From contig CM000150.2 in NCBI GenBank assembly GCA_000004695.1, forward strand, positions 4,128,001 through 4,192,000: a stretch of 64,000 nt of DNA. Direction: 5' to 3'. This stretch comes from Dictyostelium discoideum (Eukaryota). Both the position numbers and the translations under genes were made by a program. Below, one piece after another: positions 2,694 through 57,676 of this stretch. Every line of letters starts with the position of its first letter. Position 1 is the stretch's first letter. The notes beneath the pieces are model-generated. The model worked only from the letters and a program-made list of their open reading frames with translations, made no database searches and was not told the origin of the DNA.

Positions 2694-7261
<4,568 letters not shown>

Positions 7262-14622: not shown

Positions 14623-15110
14623 AAAAAACATTGCCAAAGAATTTTTTGGTGGCTGGTTGAAAATGAAAGGGCGGTATTGAAGATGAATAATGGAAACTGA
14701 TTGTGGATCTTGGTTAGAATATTCATAAAAAAAAAAAAAAATTAAAATTAAAAAAAAAAAAAAAAGTGGAAATATTTTCGTGCAACCCATTATTTTCCCA
14801 CCTCCAATTTTTTTTTTTAAAAACGTTAAACATAACAAACTTATTTTCACATTCTTTATATTAATTTTATTTTTTTTTCATTGGTTTTTTTTTTGCTGGA
14901 TCAAGATTCAAAAAAAAAAAAATAAAAAAATTTTTTAAAAAAAAAAATAATTTAATAATTTGTTGACTGTTAATAGAACAAGTGTTTGCCTCAGGTGTGT
15001 TGTGATTGAGAATGCCGAAATTAATATTCGCAGCATCTTATCAACAAAAGTGGAACCACTTTTCGTTTATTTTTTACAAATTATAGAAAATTATAATTAA
15101 AATAATATTA
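14600..15110. promoter_or_regulatory. Conserved upstream non-coding module of family-2 gene copy 1. It is unusually GC-rich for intergenic DNA here.
   Basis: Homologous to 19640-20130 and partly to 14036-14530. It contains the motif TTTCGTTTATTTTTTACAAAT at about 14556 and about 15062. Confidence 0.5.
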
Positions 15111-29634: not shown

Positions 29635-29843
29635 TAAAATTTATCTCCACTCTCAAATAATATATTTGTATTTTCTTTTTTTTTTTTTTGGCATCCTTCA
29701 AAAATTCAAAAATAGATAAAGACATCTTCCTTTTTTTTTTTTTTACCTGTGATCAGACCTTCAAGGAATGTCCTTGTGTCTTTTCGGCGGTGTTTGTTAA
29801 ACAGTTTTATTTTTATTATTCAATTGTATTAAATTTTTTAAAC

Positions 29844-29852
<9 letters not shown>

Positions 29853-29914
<62 letters not shown>

Positions 29915-30830
29915 ACTACTTAAATTGGAAGAGGGTTCGGAGCTGCTGGGGTTTGCCAGGCTTTGTTGAATTTGTATTTGTGAAGATCTTGATAGGTGTT
30001 TTTTAGTATTGCTTCGTCGTGTTTGATTTTCTTTAGTGTGATGAATTTTTCAGTTTCGATGAGATTTAGTAATTCTGTTTCTATGACCTTTTGCTCGAAT
30101 TTTGGCTCTGGTTTGCTTTCATCAGTGTTGAACAATTTGTGACAGATTATCTTCCATAATTGGTGTGCTATTATTCCTATGAGGTTGGGGAAGATTCTCT
30201 CAGTTCTGTTGTATTTTGATATGTCTAAGGTATCCATTGACCATCTGTGGATTTTGATGAATGATAATTTGTTAACTGTTGATATGATGGTTTTTTCAAT
30301 ATCTAGGATATCTTGGCATAGAGTGAAGAGGTGAGAATAAGGGTCTCTGAATAGGTGGCCACAGATCTTGCATCTGGTATCTCTTTCGTGGTTGATACCT
30401 GGAAGTGATCTTGAGAAGAATCTGAAGAGGGTGTTTCTACCTTTTTGGTGAGAAATGCTGTTGATGTTTATGAATACTTTGGGTATTGCTGTGTTGTATC
30501 TCACCGCCCATAACTTCTGCCATTCTGTTCTTCTTGGTGTTGGGTGTCTGTCTTTGATCATGAGTTCGTAGATTTCTTTCAGTTTTAGTGGTTCGTCATT
30601 GTCGTTTCTTATACAGTCTGGAAGTTCATTTATCTTTGGATGGTTTTGGTAAAATTTGACTCTGAATACACCCCAGTGTCTGCACATATCGTTGAGGGTT
30701 GAAGTGTGGGCTTTTTTCTACTTAATTGCTCCATGTACCATTCTTGTAAAGTATTGTTGTTGTTGTTGTTGTTGTTATGGAGTAGCCTATAAAGACATCT
30801 TCCCATTTTTTTCAAATGTTTTCAAGGAAT
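29853..30830 (-). mobile_element. 5'-truncated non-LTR retrotransposon 3' end on the minus strand, TRE3-like by position. It holds a degenerate ORF2 C-terminus (ORFs 30815..30630 and 30687..29920, frameshifted) and a 58-nt poly(A) tail at 29910..29853.
   Basis: ORF 29920-30687 encodes a C-terminal Cys/His box (..RCKICGHLFRDPYSHLFTLCQ..) typical of the LINE ORF2 3' domain. A poly(A) tract lies immediately 3' on the same strand. The element sits on the 3' side of tRNA-Lys, just beyond its ex-B box, which is where TRE3 elements are known to integrate. Confidence 0.6.
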
Positions 30831-30836
30831 CGAACC
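30826..30836 (-). promoter_or_regulatory. Extra B-box (ex-B, GGTTCGATTCC on the minus strand), 34 bp downstream of tRNA-Lys.
   Basis: B-box consensus GGTTCGANTCC read on the tRNA strand. Downstream ex-B boxes are a known feature of Dictyostelium tRNA genes. Confidence 0.6.
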
Positions 30837-30869
30837 TGTGATTTAATTGTGGAAAAATTAAAAAAATTT

Positions 30870-30942
30870 CGCCCAAAGGGGGGCTCGAACCCCCGACCAC
30901 AAGGTTAAAAGCCTTGCGCTCTACCGACTGAGCTATCTGGGC
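30870..30942 (-). tRNA. tRNA-Lys (anticodon UUU), 73 nt.
   Basis: Minus-strand sequence: GCCCAGATAGCTCAGTCGGTAGAGCGCAAGGCTTTTAACCTTGTGGTCGGGGGTTCGAGCCCCCCTTTGGGCG. I folded it by hand. Acceptor 7 bp with one G-U, D-stem GCTC/GAGC, anticodon stem CAAGG/CCTTG, loop CTTTTAA, T-stem GGGGG/CCCCC, TTCGAGC loop. Confidence 0.9.
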
Positions 30943-30984
30943 ATTTGTATATTTTTTTTTGAAACTATAGCAGTACTTGATCGT

Positions 30985-31657
30985 TATACAAAAAAACAAA
31001 CAACAACAACAATCTCTTTTTTTGATTATTTCATTTTTCATATAAAAAAGACTTAAAAAACAAATAAATAAATAAATAAACTATTTTAAAAAGCCATCTT
31101 TTTACTTTATTGTAATTTATTATTTGTTTCGTTTTGAGAATTTTGCGTAGCAAAATTTTCAAAAAAAAAGCAAAAAATAATCAGATCGAAAAAAACAAAC
31201 AACAACAACAATCTCTTTTTTTGATTATTTCATTTTTCATATAAAAAAGACTTAAAAAACAAATAAATAAATAAATAAACTATTTTAAAAAGCCATCTTT
31301 TTACTTTATTGTAATTTATTATTTGTTTCGTTTTGAGAATTTTGCGTAGCAAAATTTTCAAAAAAAAAGCAAAAAATAATCAGATCGAAAAAAACAAACA
31401 ACAACAACAATCTCTTTTTTTGATTATTTCATTTTTCATATAAAAAAGACTTAAAAAACAAATAAATAAATAAATAAACTATTTTAAAAAGCCATCTTTT
31501 TACTTTATTGTAATTTATTATTTGTTTCGTTTTGAGAATTTTGCGTAGCAAAATTTTCAAAAAAAAAGCAAAAAATAATCAGATCGAAAAAAACAAACAA
31601 CAACAACAATCTCTTTTTTTGATTATTTCATTTTTCATATAAAAAAGACTTAAAAAA

Positions 31658-31680
<23 letters not shown>
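30985..31680 (+). repeat. Tandem array of about 3.5 copies of a 198-bp unit. It looks like the amplified TRE5-A 'A-module', the 5' promoter module. It starts 48 bp upstream of the tRNA-Lys 5' end.
   Basis: Unit starts at about 30989, 31190, 31388 and 31586 (caaaaaaacaaacaacaacaacaatctctttttttgattatttcatttttcatataaaaaagacttaaaaaacaaataaataaataaataaactattttaaaaagccatctttttactttattgtaatttattatttgtttcgttttgagaattttgcgtagcaaaattttcaaaaaaaaagcaaaaaataatcagatcg). Copies are nearly identical. The position matches the known TRE5 integration distance. Confidence 0.7.
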
Positions 31681-31689
<9 letters not shown>

Positions 31690-31694
<5 letters not shown>

Positions 31695-33400
31695 GGAACC
31701 CAAGTTAATCAGAAAATTTCCAGATTTTTAACTTTTTAAAGAAAAATATAAAAGATAGAAAGAAAATAAAATGAAAATCACAAACAACACCACAAATATT
31801 AAGCAACACAAATGCCTACAAAAAATAAGCGAAATTGTGGATAAAACTCAATTAAAAAAAAAACAATTCAAATACGTCATAAACATCAATCACGAACCAG
31901 ACGATAAAATAAAAAAAGATTTAGAAAAAAGTTTGGACAAAAAAGATGTTTTAATCAAAAGTAATAATACATTCAAAATTCTCACAGATAGTATTAGTAC
32001 AGTAATCTATTTTGTAAATATGTTTGATGCAGAATTAAAAGGACAATTTATAACCACTATAAGACCAAAAAATATGTATACAGATTTTGATTGGTATAAA
32101 TCACTCACAGAAATAGAATGGGTAATAGAAAATGAAGGATGTAAACTAATTAAATCAGAAATTAAAGGCGAAACTCTAATTATCAAAACAGTGAAAAGAG
32201 TCGTAGAAGAATTTGACACTATCATTGAACTAGACAATCTAACATTAATTGGACACTCCAACAAAGGATGGAGAGATCAAACCTCATTACCAGAAAATCA
32301 AGAAGAAAACAAAAATAAAAAACAATCAGATGAACAACAACCACAATCTACATCAGAACAAATACCAAAACAAGGAAAAAGAACAATCATTATCCCACCA
32401 ATCACATCCTCATCTAATGATAAAACATTTATGGCCCTAGATGATACAGCTCAAAAGGTAATAGAAGCATCACTAGAAAACGTAGATGAACTAACAAGAA
32501 TAGAGAATGAGATCAATACACAATCGATAAACAATCAAGAAATTAAAACAAAATCAGAAAAACCTATTGAACCACCATCTCCATACAATACACCAATAAA
32601 ACAACACGGCGAAACAAAGGACTAACAACGGAAGAAAAACTTAGAGAGGTAAATGATATCTTCGACTTCACCAGCCCAAACACTGATGCAATAAGAAAAA
32701 TAGAATTCCCACTTTCAATCCCTTCAAATCAATGGTTCTTCTCCTCTCCAATAAAACATATCATGAGTTTCAGCCCAACCTATGGTACACCATCGAAAAT
32801 TATCGATTCACCAAGTAAATTGTTAAACACACCAAAAAACAAACAACAAGACAAAACAAACAGGACCAACAAAACACCAGTCAAACCAAAATTGGGTGAA
32901 TATGGACAAAAAAGCATAAAAACAAAAATGGATGAAGATATAGACAACTTCAACAAGGAAATTCTAAAACAAATCAATAAATCAAAAAACCCCACAAACA
33001 CACAAGACCAACAACACAACGAACAAAGTAAAGATCAGTTAGAAGACAAAATAAACCAGAAACTTCAAAAGGTAGATAAAAATCTACCCCAAATAAAACT
33101 ATAAAGAAAAACACAATAAGAATAGGTGTTTGGAACGTCCAAGGATCCAACACCATCCAATCTGCCAGCATAATAAACACCGTTTTAGACAACAACAAGC
33201 TGGACGCAGCACTTCTAACTGAAACAAATATAAAAACAAATAAAATTTACTCAATAAATCAACAATATAAAAACAAAATAACACACCACGCACCAATTGA
33301 TAAAACAGGACAAGGGGTGTCACAAATCATCATCAACACCCGCAATAGAACTTCCTAAACATCTCAAAAAATACAATAATTCACTCAGTACTTTCTATAA

Positions 33401-33457
<57 letters not shown>
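31690..33457 (+). mobile_element. TRE5 (DRE)-like non-LTR retrotransposon body. It contains ORF1 and the first roughly 90 codons of ORF2 (APE-like start ..RIGVWNVQGSNTIQSASIINTVLDNNKLDAALLTETNIK..), then a 62-nt poly(A).
   Basis: It is continuous with the A-module array. ORF1 is at 31771-32625. A frameshifted continuation lies at 32763-33104. The ORF2 N-terminus is at about 33108-33357, followed by poly(A) at 33396-33457. Confidence 0.65.
31771..32625 (+). CDS. TRE5-like retrotransposon ORF1 (284 aa, possibly frameshifted relative to the ancestral longer ORF1).
   Basis: ORF track. Its N-terminal 60 codons recur in the truncated element copies at 33504-33690 and 35112-35300. Confidence 0.55.
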   Translation: MKITNNTTNIKQHKCLQKISEIVDKTQLKKKQFKYVININHEPDDKIKKDLEKSLDKKDVLIKSNNTFKILTDSISTVIYFVNMFDAELKGQFITTIRPKNMYTDFDWYKSLTEIEWVIENEGCKLIKSEIKGETLIIKTVKRVVEEFDTIIELDNLTLIGHSNKGWRDQTSLPENQEENKNKKQSDEQQPQSTSEQIPKQGKRTIIIPPITSSSNDKTFMALDDTAQKVIEASLENVDELTRIENEINTQSINNQEIKTKSEKPIEPPSPYNTPIKQHGETKD

Positions 33458-33459
<2 letters not shown>

Positions 33460-34057
33460 CAAGTTTAATCAGAAAAAATAAAAAAGATAGAAAGAAAATA
33501 AAATGAAAATCACAAACAACACCACAAATATTAAGCAACACAAATGCCTACAAAAAATAAGCGAAATTGTGGATAAAACTCAATTAAAAAAAAAAAAAAA
33601 CAATTCAAATACGTCATAAACATCAATCACGAACCAGACGATAAAATAAAAAAAGATTTAGAAAAAAGTTTGGACAAAAAAGATGTTTTAATCAAAAAGA
33701 CCCTGTAAAAAAAAAAAAAAAATAAAATGAGATCTAGCATCTCAAGGAGAAGCAAATAATAATTGCGTTATCCAATTCAAAAAAAAAAAACTTGATCGTT
33801 ATATTCAACAACTACTAGTACACGAACTAAAGAAAACTCAAACAGCAGCCTGGGAAAGAACAAAAAACAACATATACAAACTAATCAGACAAGAAAAAAA
33901 AGCAACCAACAACGAACAAATAAAAAAATTCAAAAACATCATCTCCCTACAACTCGAAAGATTTAGCAAACACTGGAACTCACCACTACACACAGTAGCA
34001 CTACCATCAAACCTCAACAAATATATTACGTCACCAAACACACTCTACACCCCCCAA

Positions 34058-34117
<60 letters not shown>
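33458..34117 (+). mobile_element. Composite of TRE5 fragments. First is a truncated copy (end of B-module-like region, ORF1 start, internal deletion, C-module-like 3' end, oligo(A)). Next is the target-site repeat 'cttgatcgttatat' at about 33791. Last is an ORF2 C-terminal fragment with a 50-nt poly(A).
   Basis: 33504-33690 is about 98% identical to 31771-31960. 33693-33790 matches the 3' terminal module repeated at 35388-35470. Poly(A) lies at 34065-34117. Confidence 0.6.
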
Positions 34118-34119
<2 letters not shown>

Positions 34120-34864
34120 ATACAACCTTAAAAGGCACCTGTAATATCTAAAAATAAAATTAATAAAATAAGTCATATCTCAAGAAGAAGCAACTAAAAA
34201 TTGCGTTATTCCATTCAAAAAAAAAAATTGATCGTTATATTCAGGTCAAAAGAAAGATTAATCACCCAACTCTACCATTTAGAGAAGCCAGATCAATCAC
34301 AACTATCAAAGGAAGAGACTTAGCATGGAGGTATTTACTCAAGGCACTTCCAAAACACCATGGGGAGAATTGCCACTCATGTAAAGAAGAAGAGTCGTCT
34401 ATGCACATCTTCTTCGAATGCAAATCAATAAAACAGGATATCGACTCAATCTATCAAAAGGTCTGTAAAGACTATAACAACATTTACCACGGTCCATGGA
34501 GCGAAAAAGTTCTCGGAAAATTACTCACACCATTCTCATCAAATCTGATAGGAGCCATTATGGAATCGATATGGTACAGAAGAAATCAAATAAAATTCAA
34601 CGATAACACTACAATAATAACAGAGAACCAAATAATTCATAAAAATCAAAAAAGCGAGAGTTACCGAATGGGATAGAACAAGAAAGATAGTAGAAAAGCA
34701 ACTACGTCAAGAACTAAGATGCACTGATAACCGAGAGTCAATCAATCGGACCGCATCAATAAAAAGAAGACTCGAAAAATTCAGCCACAACTGGAACTCG
34801 AAACTCATGACCATAAACATCCCGTAACACTTCATACCATACTGCTCATATATCACCAACTACT

Positions 34865-34895
<31 letters not shown>
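34120..34895 (+). mobile_element. TRE5 fragments. A 3'-terminal module plus oligo(A) comes first, then the target-site repeat 'ttgatcgttatat' at 34229. Then follows an ORF2 C-terminal roughly 200 codons with a CCHC-type box (..NCHSCKEEESSMHIFFECKS..) and a poly(A) at 34868-34895.
   Basis: ORF 34401-34676 and surrounding frames. The Cys/His motif is like other non-LTR ORF2 C-termini. Confidence 0.6.
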
Positions 34896-34899
<4 letters not shown>

Positions 34900-35084
34900 A
34901 TAAAAATAATAATAATAATAATAAAAATATAATAATAATAATATAATAATAATAATAATAAAAAAATAAGAATAACAAGAAAAAAAAAAAAAAAAAAATA
35001 AAAAAAAAAAAAAAAAACTCCAAATAAACTCTCCTAGAACACACTCAAATTGAGTGATGTTATTAAAAAAAAAAAAAGATCGTT

Positions 35085-35323
35085 ATATTTTTTTTTCAAT
35101 AGAAAGAAATAAGATGAAAATTACAAAAAAACAAATATTAAGCAAAACAAATTCCTACAAAAAATAAGTGAAATTGTGGATAAAACTCAAAAAAAAAAAA
35201 AAACAATTCAAATATGTCATCAACACCAATCATGAAGCTGATGATAAAATAAAAGATTTGGAAAAAAGTTTGGACAAAAAAGATGTTTTAATCAAAAGTA
35301 ATAATAAAATTCAAAATTTTAAA

Positions 35324-35367
<44 letters not shown>

Positions 35368-35480
35368 CTAACCCCTCTTTTAGAGACCCTGTAAAAAACT
35401 ACAAATAAAATACGATCTAGCATCTCAAGGAGAAGCAACTAATAATTGCGTTATCCAATTCAAAAAAAAAAAATCGTTAA
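35085..35480 (+). mobile_element. Truncated TRE5 copy. It is preceded by the target-site repeat 'gatcgttatat' at 35078 and contains ORF1 start, an internal deletion, poly(A), and a 3'-terminal module.
   Basis: 35112-35300 is homologous to 31771-31960. 35388-35470 is homologous to 33693-33790. Confidence 0.55.
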
Positions 35481-35525
35481 TTTTTTTAAAAGAGAATTAA
35501 ATTCAAAATAAGATAACTTAAGACA

Positions 35526-35570: not shown

Positions 35571-35643
35571 TGCTCGATGCAGGGATCGAACCTGCGACCG
35601 TGGCGTTATTAGCACCACGCTCTGCCGACTGAGCTAATCGAGC
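35571..35643 (-). tRNA. tRNA-Ile (anticodon AAU), 73 nt.
   Basis: Minus-strand sequence: GCTCGATTAGCTCAGTCGGCAGAGCGTGGTGCTAATAACGCCACGGTCGCAGGTTCGATCCCTGCATCGAGCA. All four stems are perfectly paired. Anticodon loop CTAATAA. Confidence 0.9.
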
Positions 35644-35649
35644 TAGGAT

Positions 35650-36400
35650 GAAAATAATGTAATTGTAATGAATCTCGTATTCCGATTCCTATGGAATACT
35701 CTTTATAATTTGTATATACTTGTGTGACCCTTGAACACACAGAAATAATTAATAATAAATAATAAATAATATTATATCTCTTATATAATATAATAAAGCT
35801 TTCGTTTGTGCACAATTTGGAATAAAACAACAATGAATTAATTTTTATTTTATTTACTGTTTATACTAAAATTAATTTTACTAAAGAAACCATTGGTAAA
35901 ATTTCTGAGAGTAAAGTAAGAATCTTGTATTTGTTAACGTCTTTTCAGTTACAGATTTATATCTATATTTGTATTTTACCAGGGATAAAAACTTTATATA
36001 TTAATTTATGTCGCTTAATTATTCGCGATTATTACAATAATATAATAAATCAGGTGTACTGGTTTATTGAAGTTAATATATAATTAAAAAAATAAGAGTT
36101 TATTTGTATATTTAAGAAAGTAAATACAATGATTTTTTTTTAATATTTTTAGAGTCTTTATTTTAATATTCCGAGTACCAGGATTAGCCTCCTAAAGTCA
36201 TTTAGTATATAATATTATTTATTGTTAACTATTACGGCAAAACTTCTAAAGTCGGTTATGACTAGTAACTAAATTATATTTTGATTCTTATGATTTCCAT
36301 ATTAATATATGTCAATACATAAATCCATATTGGTTTTAATATGGTGAATCATTACAATAATTTTTTTTACCGAAATTTGTAATAAACTAAATCCCGATTC
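35650..36400. mobile_element. Non-coding element of about 750 bp, not A-rich, beginning 18 bp upstream of tRNA-Ile. It is possibly a remnant of a tRNA-targeted LTR retrotransposon (DGLT-A-like) or a solo LTR.
   Basis: Its composition differs sharply from the flanking TRE5 A-rich DNA. Both ends carry a related TGTAAT..ATC[TC]CG[T]ATTCC sequence (35661-35686 and 36381-36404). There is no ORF. The position, 13-33 bp 5' of a tRNA, is where DGLT-A elements are known to integrate. Confidence 0.3.
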
Positions 36401-36750
36401 CAAAAAAAAAAAAAAGAAACAACAAACACAAAAAAAAACTTTAAAATATCACCTCAAACCAACGTGAAGGATTCAGTAAAATATGAAAATACCTCTCCAC
36501 ATAGTAACAATACCATCAAACCTAACAAATAGATCACCACCCTTAACACACTCTTCAACCTTTAAAAAAAAAAAAAAAAAAAAGATACACAACAAACCTT
36601 ACTACCTTCAACAAAAGGCACTAAAATTAATTAATAAAATGATATTCATCAAGAAGAAGCAACAAACATTAAGTTATTCCTGACCAAAAAAAATAAGTAA
36701 CCAAATCTAAAAAAAAAAAAAAAAAAATTAAGTAACCGAATCTAAAAAAT
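36400..36750 (+). mobile_element. Further TRE5-like ORF2-3'/C-module fragments with oligo(A) tracts, ending in a pair of direct repeats (taagtaacc[a/g]aatctaaaaaa) around an A-run.
   Basis: 36440-36700 is homologous to 33960-34250, the ORF2 end plus 3' module. Confidence 0.5.
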
Positions 36751-57580: not shown

Positions 57581-57676
57581 TGGAGAAGAAGGGTATCGAT
57601 CCCTTTACCTTATGGAAATCTGATTATCGTTGCTGTTTATGCAAACCATACGCTCTACCATATGAGCTACATCCCC
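57581..57676 (-). tRNA. tRNA-Ala (anticodon UGC) with an apparent 23-nt intron in the anticodon loop. The intron is at about 57616-57638 on the plus strand.
   Basis: Minus-strand sequence: GGGGATGTAGCTCATATGGTAGAGCGTATGGTTTGCA[TAAACAGCAACGATAATCAGATT]TCCATAAGGTAAAGGGATCGATACCCTTCTTCTCCA. The acceptor has the G3:U70 Ala identity pair. D-stem GCTC/GAGC. Anticodon stem TATGG/CCATA around loop TTTGCAT (U33, A37). T-arm AAGGG-ATCGATA-CCCTT. The overall sequence closely resembles eukaryotic tRNA-Ala(UGC). There is one acceptor-stem mismatch (T6·T67). Confidence 0.6.

Follow-up and report, generated by a model that had tools for sequence, protein, structure and literature searches.

INTRODUCTION

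Non-LTR (long terminal repeat) retrotransposons of the TRE5 families of Dictyostelium discoideum integrate upstream of tRNA genes, with a mode of 47 ± 3 bp and a window of about 40 to 54 bp upstream of the mature tRNA (PMC5391098, PMC5911963), and leave target site duplications (TSDs) of 10 to 16 bp (PMC9012585). In the account given in the literature, the protein of the first open reading frame (ORF1) binds TFIIIB at the gene occupied by RNA polymerase III (Pol III), and insertion proceeds by target-primed reverse transcription (TPRT), in which cDNA synthesis on the oligo(A) tail starts from a nick in the bottom strand (PMC5391098, PMC9012585). TRE-TRE tandems at D. discoideum tRNA genes have already been described (Spaller 2017, PMC5391098; Barth 2022, PMC9012585): of 98 occupied tRNA genes, 91 received de novo TRE5-Absr copies in the interval from the tRNA to the element already there, and the tRNA gene LysUUU-6 itself took de novo integrations, with counts of 43, 383, and 142 (PMC5391098). 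Here we analyze LysUUU-6 and the array of four TRE5 elements upstream of it in a 64-kb window of D. discoideum AX4 chromosome 1 (GCA_000004695.1, contig CM000150.2, positions 4,128,001 to 4,192,000; all coordinates below refer to this whole stretch unless another locus is named).

The families differ in their modules. TRE5-A.1 has the layout AB-ORF1/ORF2-BC, and TRE5-A.2 has the layout AB-ORF1-BC, with a large deletion in ORF2 and a C-module reduced to its last ∼87 bp; TRE5-B and TRE5-C have no B-module on the 3′ side, and a C-module forms the end of TRE5-A and TRE5-C (78% identity between the two) but not TRE5-B (Siol 2011, PMC3159450).

RESULTS

We consider it very likely that the array at LysUUU-6 is a TRE-TRE tandem stack produced by successive, tRNA-guided TRE5 integrations. 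The targeting landmark, tRNA-Lys(UUU), lies on the minus strand at 30870 to 30942; its published coordinates (chr1:4158870-4158942) and its spacing to IleAAU-4 (4163571-4163643; Spaller 2017 S2 Table, PMC5391098) fit the window at an offset of 4,128,000, and the ARAGORN call (30869 to 30943) is 1 nt longer than the annotation at either end. Upstream of this gene, in a window with a G+C content of 24.5%, the string TTGATCGTTATA has exact matches at 30977, 33792, and 34228, and GATCGTTATA has exact matches at 30979, 33794, 34230, and 35078 (4 observed versus 0.05 expected, with none of 100 shuffles reaching 4); neither string was found elsewhere in the window by exact-match search. A fifth, partial copy, TCGTTA-ATTTTTTT (TCGTTAATTTTTTT), follows the final oligo(A) at 35474 to 35487. 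An earlier sequence-only reading of this DNA had placed four copies at 30977, 33783, 34221, and 35078, of which the first and last positions are right and the middle two are too low by 9 and 7 nt.

Oligo(A) stretches of 12, 11, 13, and 12 A's directly precede copies 2, 3, 4, and 5, and each of copies 2 to 4 is followed by a 5′-truncated TRE5-type fragment. Copy 1 abuts the tRNA flank and has no TRE5 end before it; after it come a single extra C and the A-module array. The sequence-only reading had put the start of this array 48 nt upstream of the tRNA 5′ end, a distance that is exact with the annotated end at 30942. In an alignment anchored on TCGTTA, the junctions read ...agcagtaCTTGATCGTTATA/c/aaaaaaacaaac (A-module) at copy 1, A12/CTTGATCGTTATATT/caacaac at copy 2, A11/TTGATCGTTATATT/caggtc at copy 3, A13/GATCGTTATATTTTTTTTT/caatag at copy 4, and A12/TCGTTAATTTTTTT/aaaagag at copy 5. 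The sequence shared past copies 2 to 4 runs on as ...TATATT, so that the duplicated units are 12 to 16 bp long with staggered ends rather than a single fixed 13-mer; of the proposed identical 13-bp target at every junction, the repetition stands and is extended by the fifth copy, whereas the fixed length does not.

With these boundaries, each element is enclosed by its own TSD, and neighboring TSDs share a target copy. Target copy 1 (CTTGATCGTTATA; 30976 to 30988, plus strand, −34 to −46 from the tRNA) is the left TSD copy of element 1, and the first 13 nt of copy 2 (CTTGATCGTTATATT; 33791 to 33805, plus strand) are the right one, giving a TSD of 13 bp, CTTGATCGTTATA, plus one extra C. The last 14 nt of copy 2 form the left TSD of element 2, whose right TSD is copy 3 (TTGATCGTTATATT; 34228 to 34241, plus strand; TSD TTGATCGTTATATT, 14 bp). 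Element 3 has the 12-bp TSD GATCGTTATATT, which is made up of the last 12 nt of copy 3 and the first 12 nt of copy 4 (GATCGTTATATTTTTTTTT; 35078 to 35096, plus strand). Within copy 4, TCGTTATATTTTTTTTT is the left TSD of element 4, and copy 5 (TCGTTAATTTTTTT; 35474 to 35487, plus strand), an ancestral form without an extra T, is its right TSD (TCGTTA(T)ATTTTTTT, about 14 to 17 bp). Relative to position 30942, the 5′ end of the tRNA, the elements have their 5′ junctions at about −52 to −56 (element 4), −49 (elements 3 and 2), and −47/−48 (element 1), in keeping with the known TRE5 integration window, and every junction is compatible with staggered nicks at about −34 to −39 and −47 to −56. The four elements all run along the plus strand, opposite to tRNA-Lys, with their 5′ ends toward the gene and their oligo(A) tails on the tRNA-distal side, and they show the hallmarks of TPRT, namely, oligo(A) of 11 to 13 nt, 5′ truncation in three of the four elements, and variable TSDs.

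Element 1 (30990 to 33790, plus strand), delimited by self-BLAST, Tandem Repeats Finder (TRF), and comparison with a TRE5-A.2 copy that a different D. discoideum assembly carries upstream of a tRNA-Thr gene (locus L002), is 5′ complete. Self-BLAST was run with a composition filter, the unfiltered output being dominated by poly(A). The element begins with 3.45 A-modules of 199 bp (TRF; 30990 to 31677), an internal A-run (31661 to 31690), and a 5′ B-module that starts at 31691, followed by ORF1 (31771 to 33105, frameshifted at ∼32618 in the reference assembly), an N-terminal remnant of ORF2 (33106 to ∼33390), a second internal A-run (33391 to 33457), a 3′ B-module (33458 to 33697), the terminal ∼81 nt of a C-module (33698 to 33778), and an A12 tail (33779 to 33790). 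In self-BLAST the 3′ B-module (33474 to 33697) is 97% identical to 31742 to 31960. This AB-ORF1-BC layout with a shortened C-module, as obtained from self-BLAST and the L002 copy rather than from a consensus alignment, is that of TRE5-A.2, and ORF1 is of the type specific to TRE5-A, a family whose ORF1 protein is known to be about 51 kDa: AX4 proteins that reach 444 amino acids in length (database name, “hypothetical protein”) match its N-terminal 284 amino acids at 100% identity, and the ORF at 31771 to 32622 is 100% identical to the AX4 protein DDB_G0270064. From the B-module through the ORF2 remnant, element 1 is 96 to 99.7% identical to the L002 copy (∼99.5% over ORF1 and the ORF2 remnant and 96 to 97% over the shorter modules), and such identity to a copy at another locus indicates that element 1 is young. 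The extra C at its 5′ junction (30989, plus strand) is probably nontemplated; in the L002 copy the A-modules start with AAAAAAACAAAC straight after the TSD, the internal A-module repeats begin likewise, and extra nucleotides have been reported at TRE5-A 5′ junctions (PMC5391098). We also considered the internal A-runs at 31661 to 31690 and 33391 to 33457 as additional junctions and rejected them, as the same runs occur inside the L002 TRE5-A.2 and no target copy follows them.

The other three elements are 5′-truncated fragments. Element 2 (33806 to 34227, plus strand) comprises the C-terminal ∼85 codons of ORF2, an A-run (34063 to 34117), a C-module-like end (34118 to 34216), and oligo(A) (34217 to 34227). 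Its ORF2 C terminus shares 47% identity with the TRE5-A counterpart (E value, 5e-23), its C-module-like end is 80 to 85% identical to TRE5-A C-modules, and it has no 3′ B-module, features that match TRE5-C by the published structural criteria, and not by a reference alignment, so that we call it TRE5-C-like. Element 3 (34242 to 35077, plus strand) retains ∼195 C-terminal ORF2 codons with one frameshift, followed by A-rich/AAT repeats (34869 to 35018), a unique 3′ end (35019 to 35064), and oligo(A) (35065 to 35077). The ORF2 C terminus, which includes a CX2C...H...C motif, matches TRE5-A at 34% identity (E value, 1e-28) and element 2 at 36%. The 3′ end of the element shows no alignment with C-modules, which elements 1, 2, and 4 all contain, and as TRE5-B is the only family without a C-module, element 3 is TRE5-B-like by elimination. 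Of ORF2, which in TRE5 has APE, RT, and zinc-finger domains, the array retains an N-terminal part in element 1 and C-terminal parts in elements 2 and 3. Element 4 (35097 to 35473, plus strand) is a TRE5-A 3′ end truncated inside the 3′ B-module, with a B-module part (35097 to 35318), an A-run (35319 to 35362), a full-length C-module (35363 to 35461), and oligo(A) (35462 to 35473); it is 88% identical to the B-modules and 90% identical to the C-module of element 1 (self-BLAST) and 87% identical to a TRE5-A.1 3′ end in L002. Because the array ends 84 to 97 bp from tRNA-Ile, the distal elements were also considered as TRE3 insertions downstream of that gene, a candidate rejected on the basis of the TRE5-A B- and C-modules and the TSD in common with the tRNA-Lys site.

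Taken together, different families, an own oligo(A) tail in each element, and nick-compatible junctions argue for four separate integrations, each at the tRNA-proximal target copy. The proposal of four or more integrations at one position is thereby borne out with the number four, and the junction alignment that the sequence-only reading had suggested confirms a nested tandem array in which each element is bounded by a recopied TSD: later elements stand between the tRNA and earlier ones, none is disrupted, and the target is reduplicated each time.

An element origin of the repeated string, as the closing stretch of the TRE5 3′ module, has in its favor that an oligo(A) always precedes copies 2 to 4. 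Orthologous loci, which were reached through a flanking C2-domain gene, speak for target DNA. In L005 (D. discoideum GCA_054859385.1; flanks about 95% identical to the window), both tRNA-Lys and tRNA-Ile are present without the array, and a single copy, CTTGTTCGTGAATTTTTTTT, occupies −33 to −52 of tRNA-Lys. L003 (GCA_054859355.1) has no array either; at its positions 15023 to 15079 it carries a 23-bp A-tailed insertion, ACCAATTAAAAAAAAAAATTAAA, flanked by a 17-bp duplication, AGTT(G/T)TTCGTGAATTTT (one mismatch). This insertion, which starts at −50 from tRNA-Lys, resembles an independent TRE5-type hit on the same site, truncated so extremely that little but a tail is left. At control loci, TRE5 ends lead into unrelated sequence. 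The TRE5-A.2 of L002 starts 48 nt upstream of tRNA-Thr(AGU) and is flanked by TCGAATTCATGA; it belongs to a second natural tandem (L002, 5790 to 9260), composed of tRNA-Thr, TRE5-A.2, the TSD TCGAATTCATGA, and a 5′-truncated TRE5-A.1 3′ end, and the C-module and oligo(A) of this truncated element are followed by TCGAATTCATGA and then by TTCAAATTC, not by the LysUUU-6 string. Likewise, the TRE5-C-like end at 36694, upstream of tRNA-Ile, runs into TAAGTAACC. The single copy at the empty site, the locus-specific duplications elsewhere, and the position of copy 1 next to the tRNA flank identify the string as target DNA, and as three different 3′ modules precede it, we give next to no credence to an origin within the element, the very case that the sequence-only reading had named as its refutation. 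The same reading had pointed to other isolates for presence or absence of the fragments, and while L005 and L003 have none of them, all four elements are present in L006 (GCA_054883475.1), an independent assembly of a near-identical strain with 0 mismatches in 10 kb of flank. In L006 the elements and their order, the junctions, and each of the five target copies are exactly as in the reference, which argues that the array is not an artifact of repeat reads from several loci collapsed in the Sanger-era AX4 reference. The differences in element 1 between the two assemblies, set against that mismatch-free flank, do suggest local consensus errors, but an artifactual array is very unlikely.

These differences lie in the ORF1 region, where 31699 to 32863 and L006 16590 to 17750 differ at 8 substituted positions and through the loss of 1 nt at ∼32618, which shortens the reference ORF1 to the 284 amino acids of DDB_G0270064 while the L006 ORF1 is intact at 444 amino acids, and in the number of A-modules, which is 3.45 in the reference (30990 to 31677), 2.45 in L006 (16080 to 16568), and 1.45 in the L002 TRE5-A.2 (5909 to 6198). 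The reference-only differences are likely consensus or misassembly errors in a Sanger reference repeat, or gene conversion, and the variable module number points to unequal exchange, slippage, or assembly collapse. Unequal exchange or slippage thus acts within the locus, which might favor an array in which one unit, an element together with its flank, was multiplied through segmental tandem duplication or unequal crossing-over. Such a history is very improbable, however, as the four units differ in sequence (three TRE5 families), length, and age, cannot be aligned end to end, and have different TSD boundaries at every junction. Template jumps are known for non-LTR reverse transcriptases, a point in favor of a single complex retrotransposition that switched between TRE5 RNAs in one TPRT reaction; yet one event gives a TSD pair at the outer ends only, whereas here an oligo(A) and a target copy stand at each internal junction. 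Copies 1 to 4, moreover, carry a mutation that is missing from copy 5, and identity to a young TRE5-A copy is about 99.5% for element 1 versus 88% for element 4, leaving template switching with a negligible probability.

The mutation just mentioned, an extra T (TCGTTATA), gives a direction to the array. It is present in copies 1 to 4 and missing from copy 5 and from both empty sites (TCGTTAA in one form and TCGTGAA in the other; ...TCGTGAATTTTTTTT in L005 and L003 when compared with copy 5). The distribution of the extra T implies that the distal element 4 inserted first, that the proximal target copy then mutated, and that later events copied the mutant; element 4 is the oldest insertion. Its ∼12% divergence from element 1 agrees with an insertion later than the split from the L005/L003 lineage; between the lineages, orthologous noncoding DNA is only 79 to 89% identical. 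For the remaining elements we infer the order 3, 2, 1 from boundaries consistent with it and from the published experiments.

Further features and insertions surround the stack. A B-box-like motif, GGTTCGATTCC, read from the sequence at 30826 to 30836 on the minus strand, ∼34 nt downstream of tRNA-Lys, is presumably the “external B box” that tRNA genes of Dictyostelium typically have. Beyond it lies a 5′-truncated TRE3-type fragment on the minus strand (29731 to 30788; 29716 to 30803 with TSDs), with a perfect 15-bp TSD, ATAAAGACATCTTCC (29716 to 29730 and 30789 to 30803), 66 to 80 bp downstream of tRNA-Lys. It contains a 255-amino-acid ORF of the ORF2 C terminus (29920 to 30687, minus strand), an internal A-run, and an oligo(A) seen as a T-run at 29731 to 29745, and it is missing from L003 and L005. 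A subthreshold Forkhead Pfam match on this TRE3-like ORF was dismissed as spurious.

On the other side of the array, tRNA-Ile(AAU), or IleAAU-4 (35571 to 35643, minus strand; ARAGORN and S2 Table), sat only ∼130 bp upstream of tRNA-Lys before the insertions. An LTR-like insertion of 703 bp (TGTAAT...ATTACA; 35657 to 36359) starts 13 nt upstream of this gene and is flanked by duplicated ATAA (4 bp); L006 has it at 100% identity, L003 and L005 do not have it, and its position fits the DGLT-A window (13 to 33 bp upstream), making it a candidate DGLT-A copy. Next comes an old TRE5-C-like 3′ fragment (36405 to 36694) with an ORF2 end, an A-run, and a C-module-like end, after which TAAGTAACC(A/G)AATCT occurs and is repeated past a further A-run. 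The fragment, which L003 and L005 share at only 79 to 85% identity, is therefore older than the split of these lineages. In the interval from the target site to the external B box of tRNA-Ile, L003 (15085 to 15930) and L005 (15110 to 15750) have about 640 to 850 bp that are not in AX4, including a long AAT microsatellite in L003, which may reflect an insertion there or a deletion in AX4. Farther away, the letters at 57581 to 57676 are consistent with the minus-strand, intron-containing tRNA-Ala(UGC) listed as AlaUGC-1 (Spaller 2017 S2 Table), which ARAGORN missed while finding both tRNA-Lys and tRNA-Ile on the minus strand. Three of the other loci compared were uninformative on the target site or on its tRNA: L004 (D. 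citrinum) has no tRNA-Lys gene; L007 (D. cf. discoideum GCA_054859235.1; 15054 to 16994) has tRNA-Asp(GUC) in place of tRNA-Lys, with a TRE5-A-like fragment that starts about 58 bp upstream of tRNA-Ile; and L001, a TRE5-A-like element of D. cf. discoideum, has no tRNA in range and an ORF2 gene model with introns.

DISCUSSION

In this study, we traced an array of TRE5 elements upstream of LysUUU-6 to a series of integrations, and the published mechanism suggests how such a series could yield the observed boundaries. TRE5 would be directed to a fixed distance upstream of the tRNA gene, and a staggered top-strand nick, 12 to 16 nt farther from the tRNA than the first one, would yield the TSD. As the distance is counted from the tRNA, each newcomer would enter the tRNA-proximal TSD copy of its predecessor, push the older elements outward, and reduplicate nearly the same bases. 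The 5′-truncated TRE5-A (35097 to 35473) came first, with the TSD TCGTTA(T)ATTTTTTT, followed by the one-base insertion of T into the proximal copy; on this model, a TRE5-B-like fragment (TSD GATCGTTATATT) and a TRE5-C-like fragment (TSD TTGATCGTTATATT) would then have entered, and the 5′-complete TRE5-A.2 (TSD CTTGATCGTTATA and the extra C), whose A-module is now at −48, would be the newest.

Several points weigh against this account or against parts of it. Among the assemblies compared, no isolate with an intermediate state, such as elements 4 and 3 only, was found, and without intermediate alleles the order of elements 3, 2, and 1 draws on consistent boundaries and the published mechanism. 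Recombination between TSD copies could in principle have emptied the L005 site secondarily, though that site is without the extra T. The short ORF fragments of the array had no Pfam matches, and the putative TRE5-B name of element 3 comes from elimination, not reference alignment. Finally, the mismatch between reference and L006 in A-modules, 8 substitutions, and 1 indel makes the fine sequence of the reference element 1 uncertain.

Within the stack built by successive integrations, the nicks of all three TRE5 families fall into one ∼6-nt window, and the left TSD ends lie at −39/−38, −37, −35, and −34 for elements 4, 3, 2, and 1, in the order of integration. A first-strand nick that shifts 1 to 2 nt toward the tRNA with each integration would be a mechanistic detail not described before, but we regard it as unlikely: four points fall into a monotonic order by accident in about 8% of cases, and the drift is only a hint. 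If it proved systematic across many tandems, the resident A-tail or TSD would bias the choice of the endonuclease in the next event.

The value of LysUUU-6 is illustrative, as it offers a clean four-layer record with three families, one ∼6-nt window, a marker mutation, and an empty allele in other isolates. Presence or absence of the stack could be used as a marker to tell D. discoideum lineages apart, and the locus flags likely consensus errors in the reference copy of TRE5-A.2.

Compared with known systems, the stack is a textbook instance of a published and already known phenomenon. It shares with the described TRE-TRE tandems the position ∼47 to 48 bp upstream, the orientation opposite to the tRNA, the oligo(A), TSDs of 10 to 16 bp, an extra 5′ nucleotide, and the placement of the new copy between the tRNA and an undisrupted resident; against the usual tandem of two elements it has four, from all three TRE5 families, together with a mutation that marks element 4 as the first, which is no difference in kind. 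Element 1 resembles the TRE5-A.2 of Siol 2011 (PMC3159450) in its A-modules, 5′ B-module, ORF1, short ORF2 remnant, 3′ B-module, and terminal ∼81 to 87 nt of the C-module, and it is unlike other TRE5-A.2 copies in having 3.45 A-modules (versus 2.45 in L006 and 1.45 in L002) and, in the reference only, the ORF1 frameshift. A more distant parallel is found in the hot spots of yeast Ty3 and Ty1, where the Pol III machinery likewise guides targeting, one tRNA gene is used repeatedly, and fragments pile up upstream. These are LTR elements, however, which use an integrase and leave fixed 5-bp TSDs and often nested or solo LTRs, without the TPRT, oligo(A), and variable TSDs of 12 to 16 bp that distinguish TRE5.

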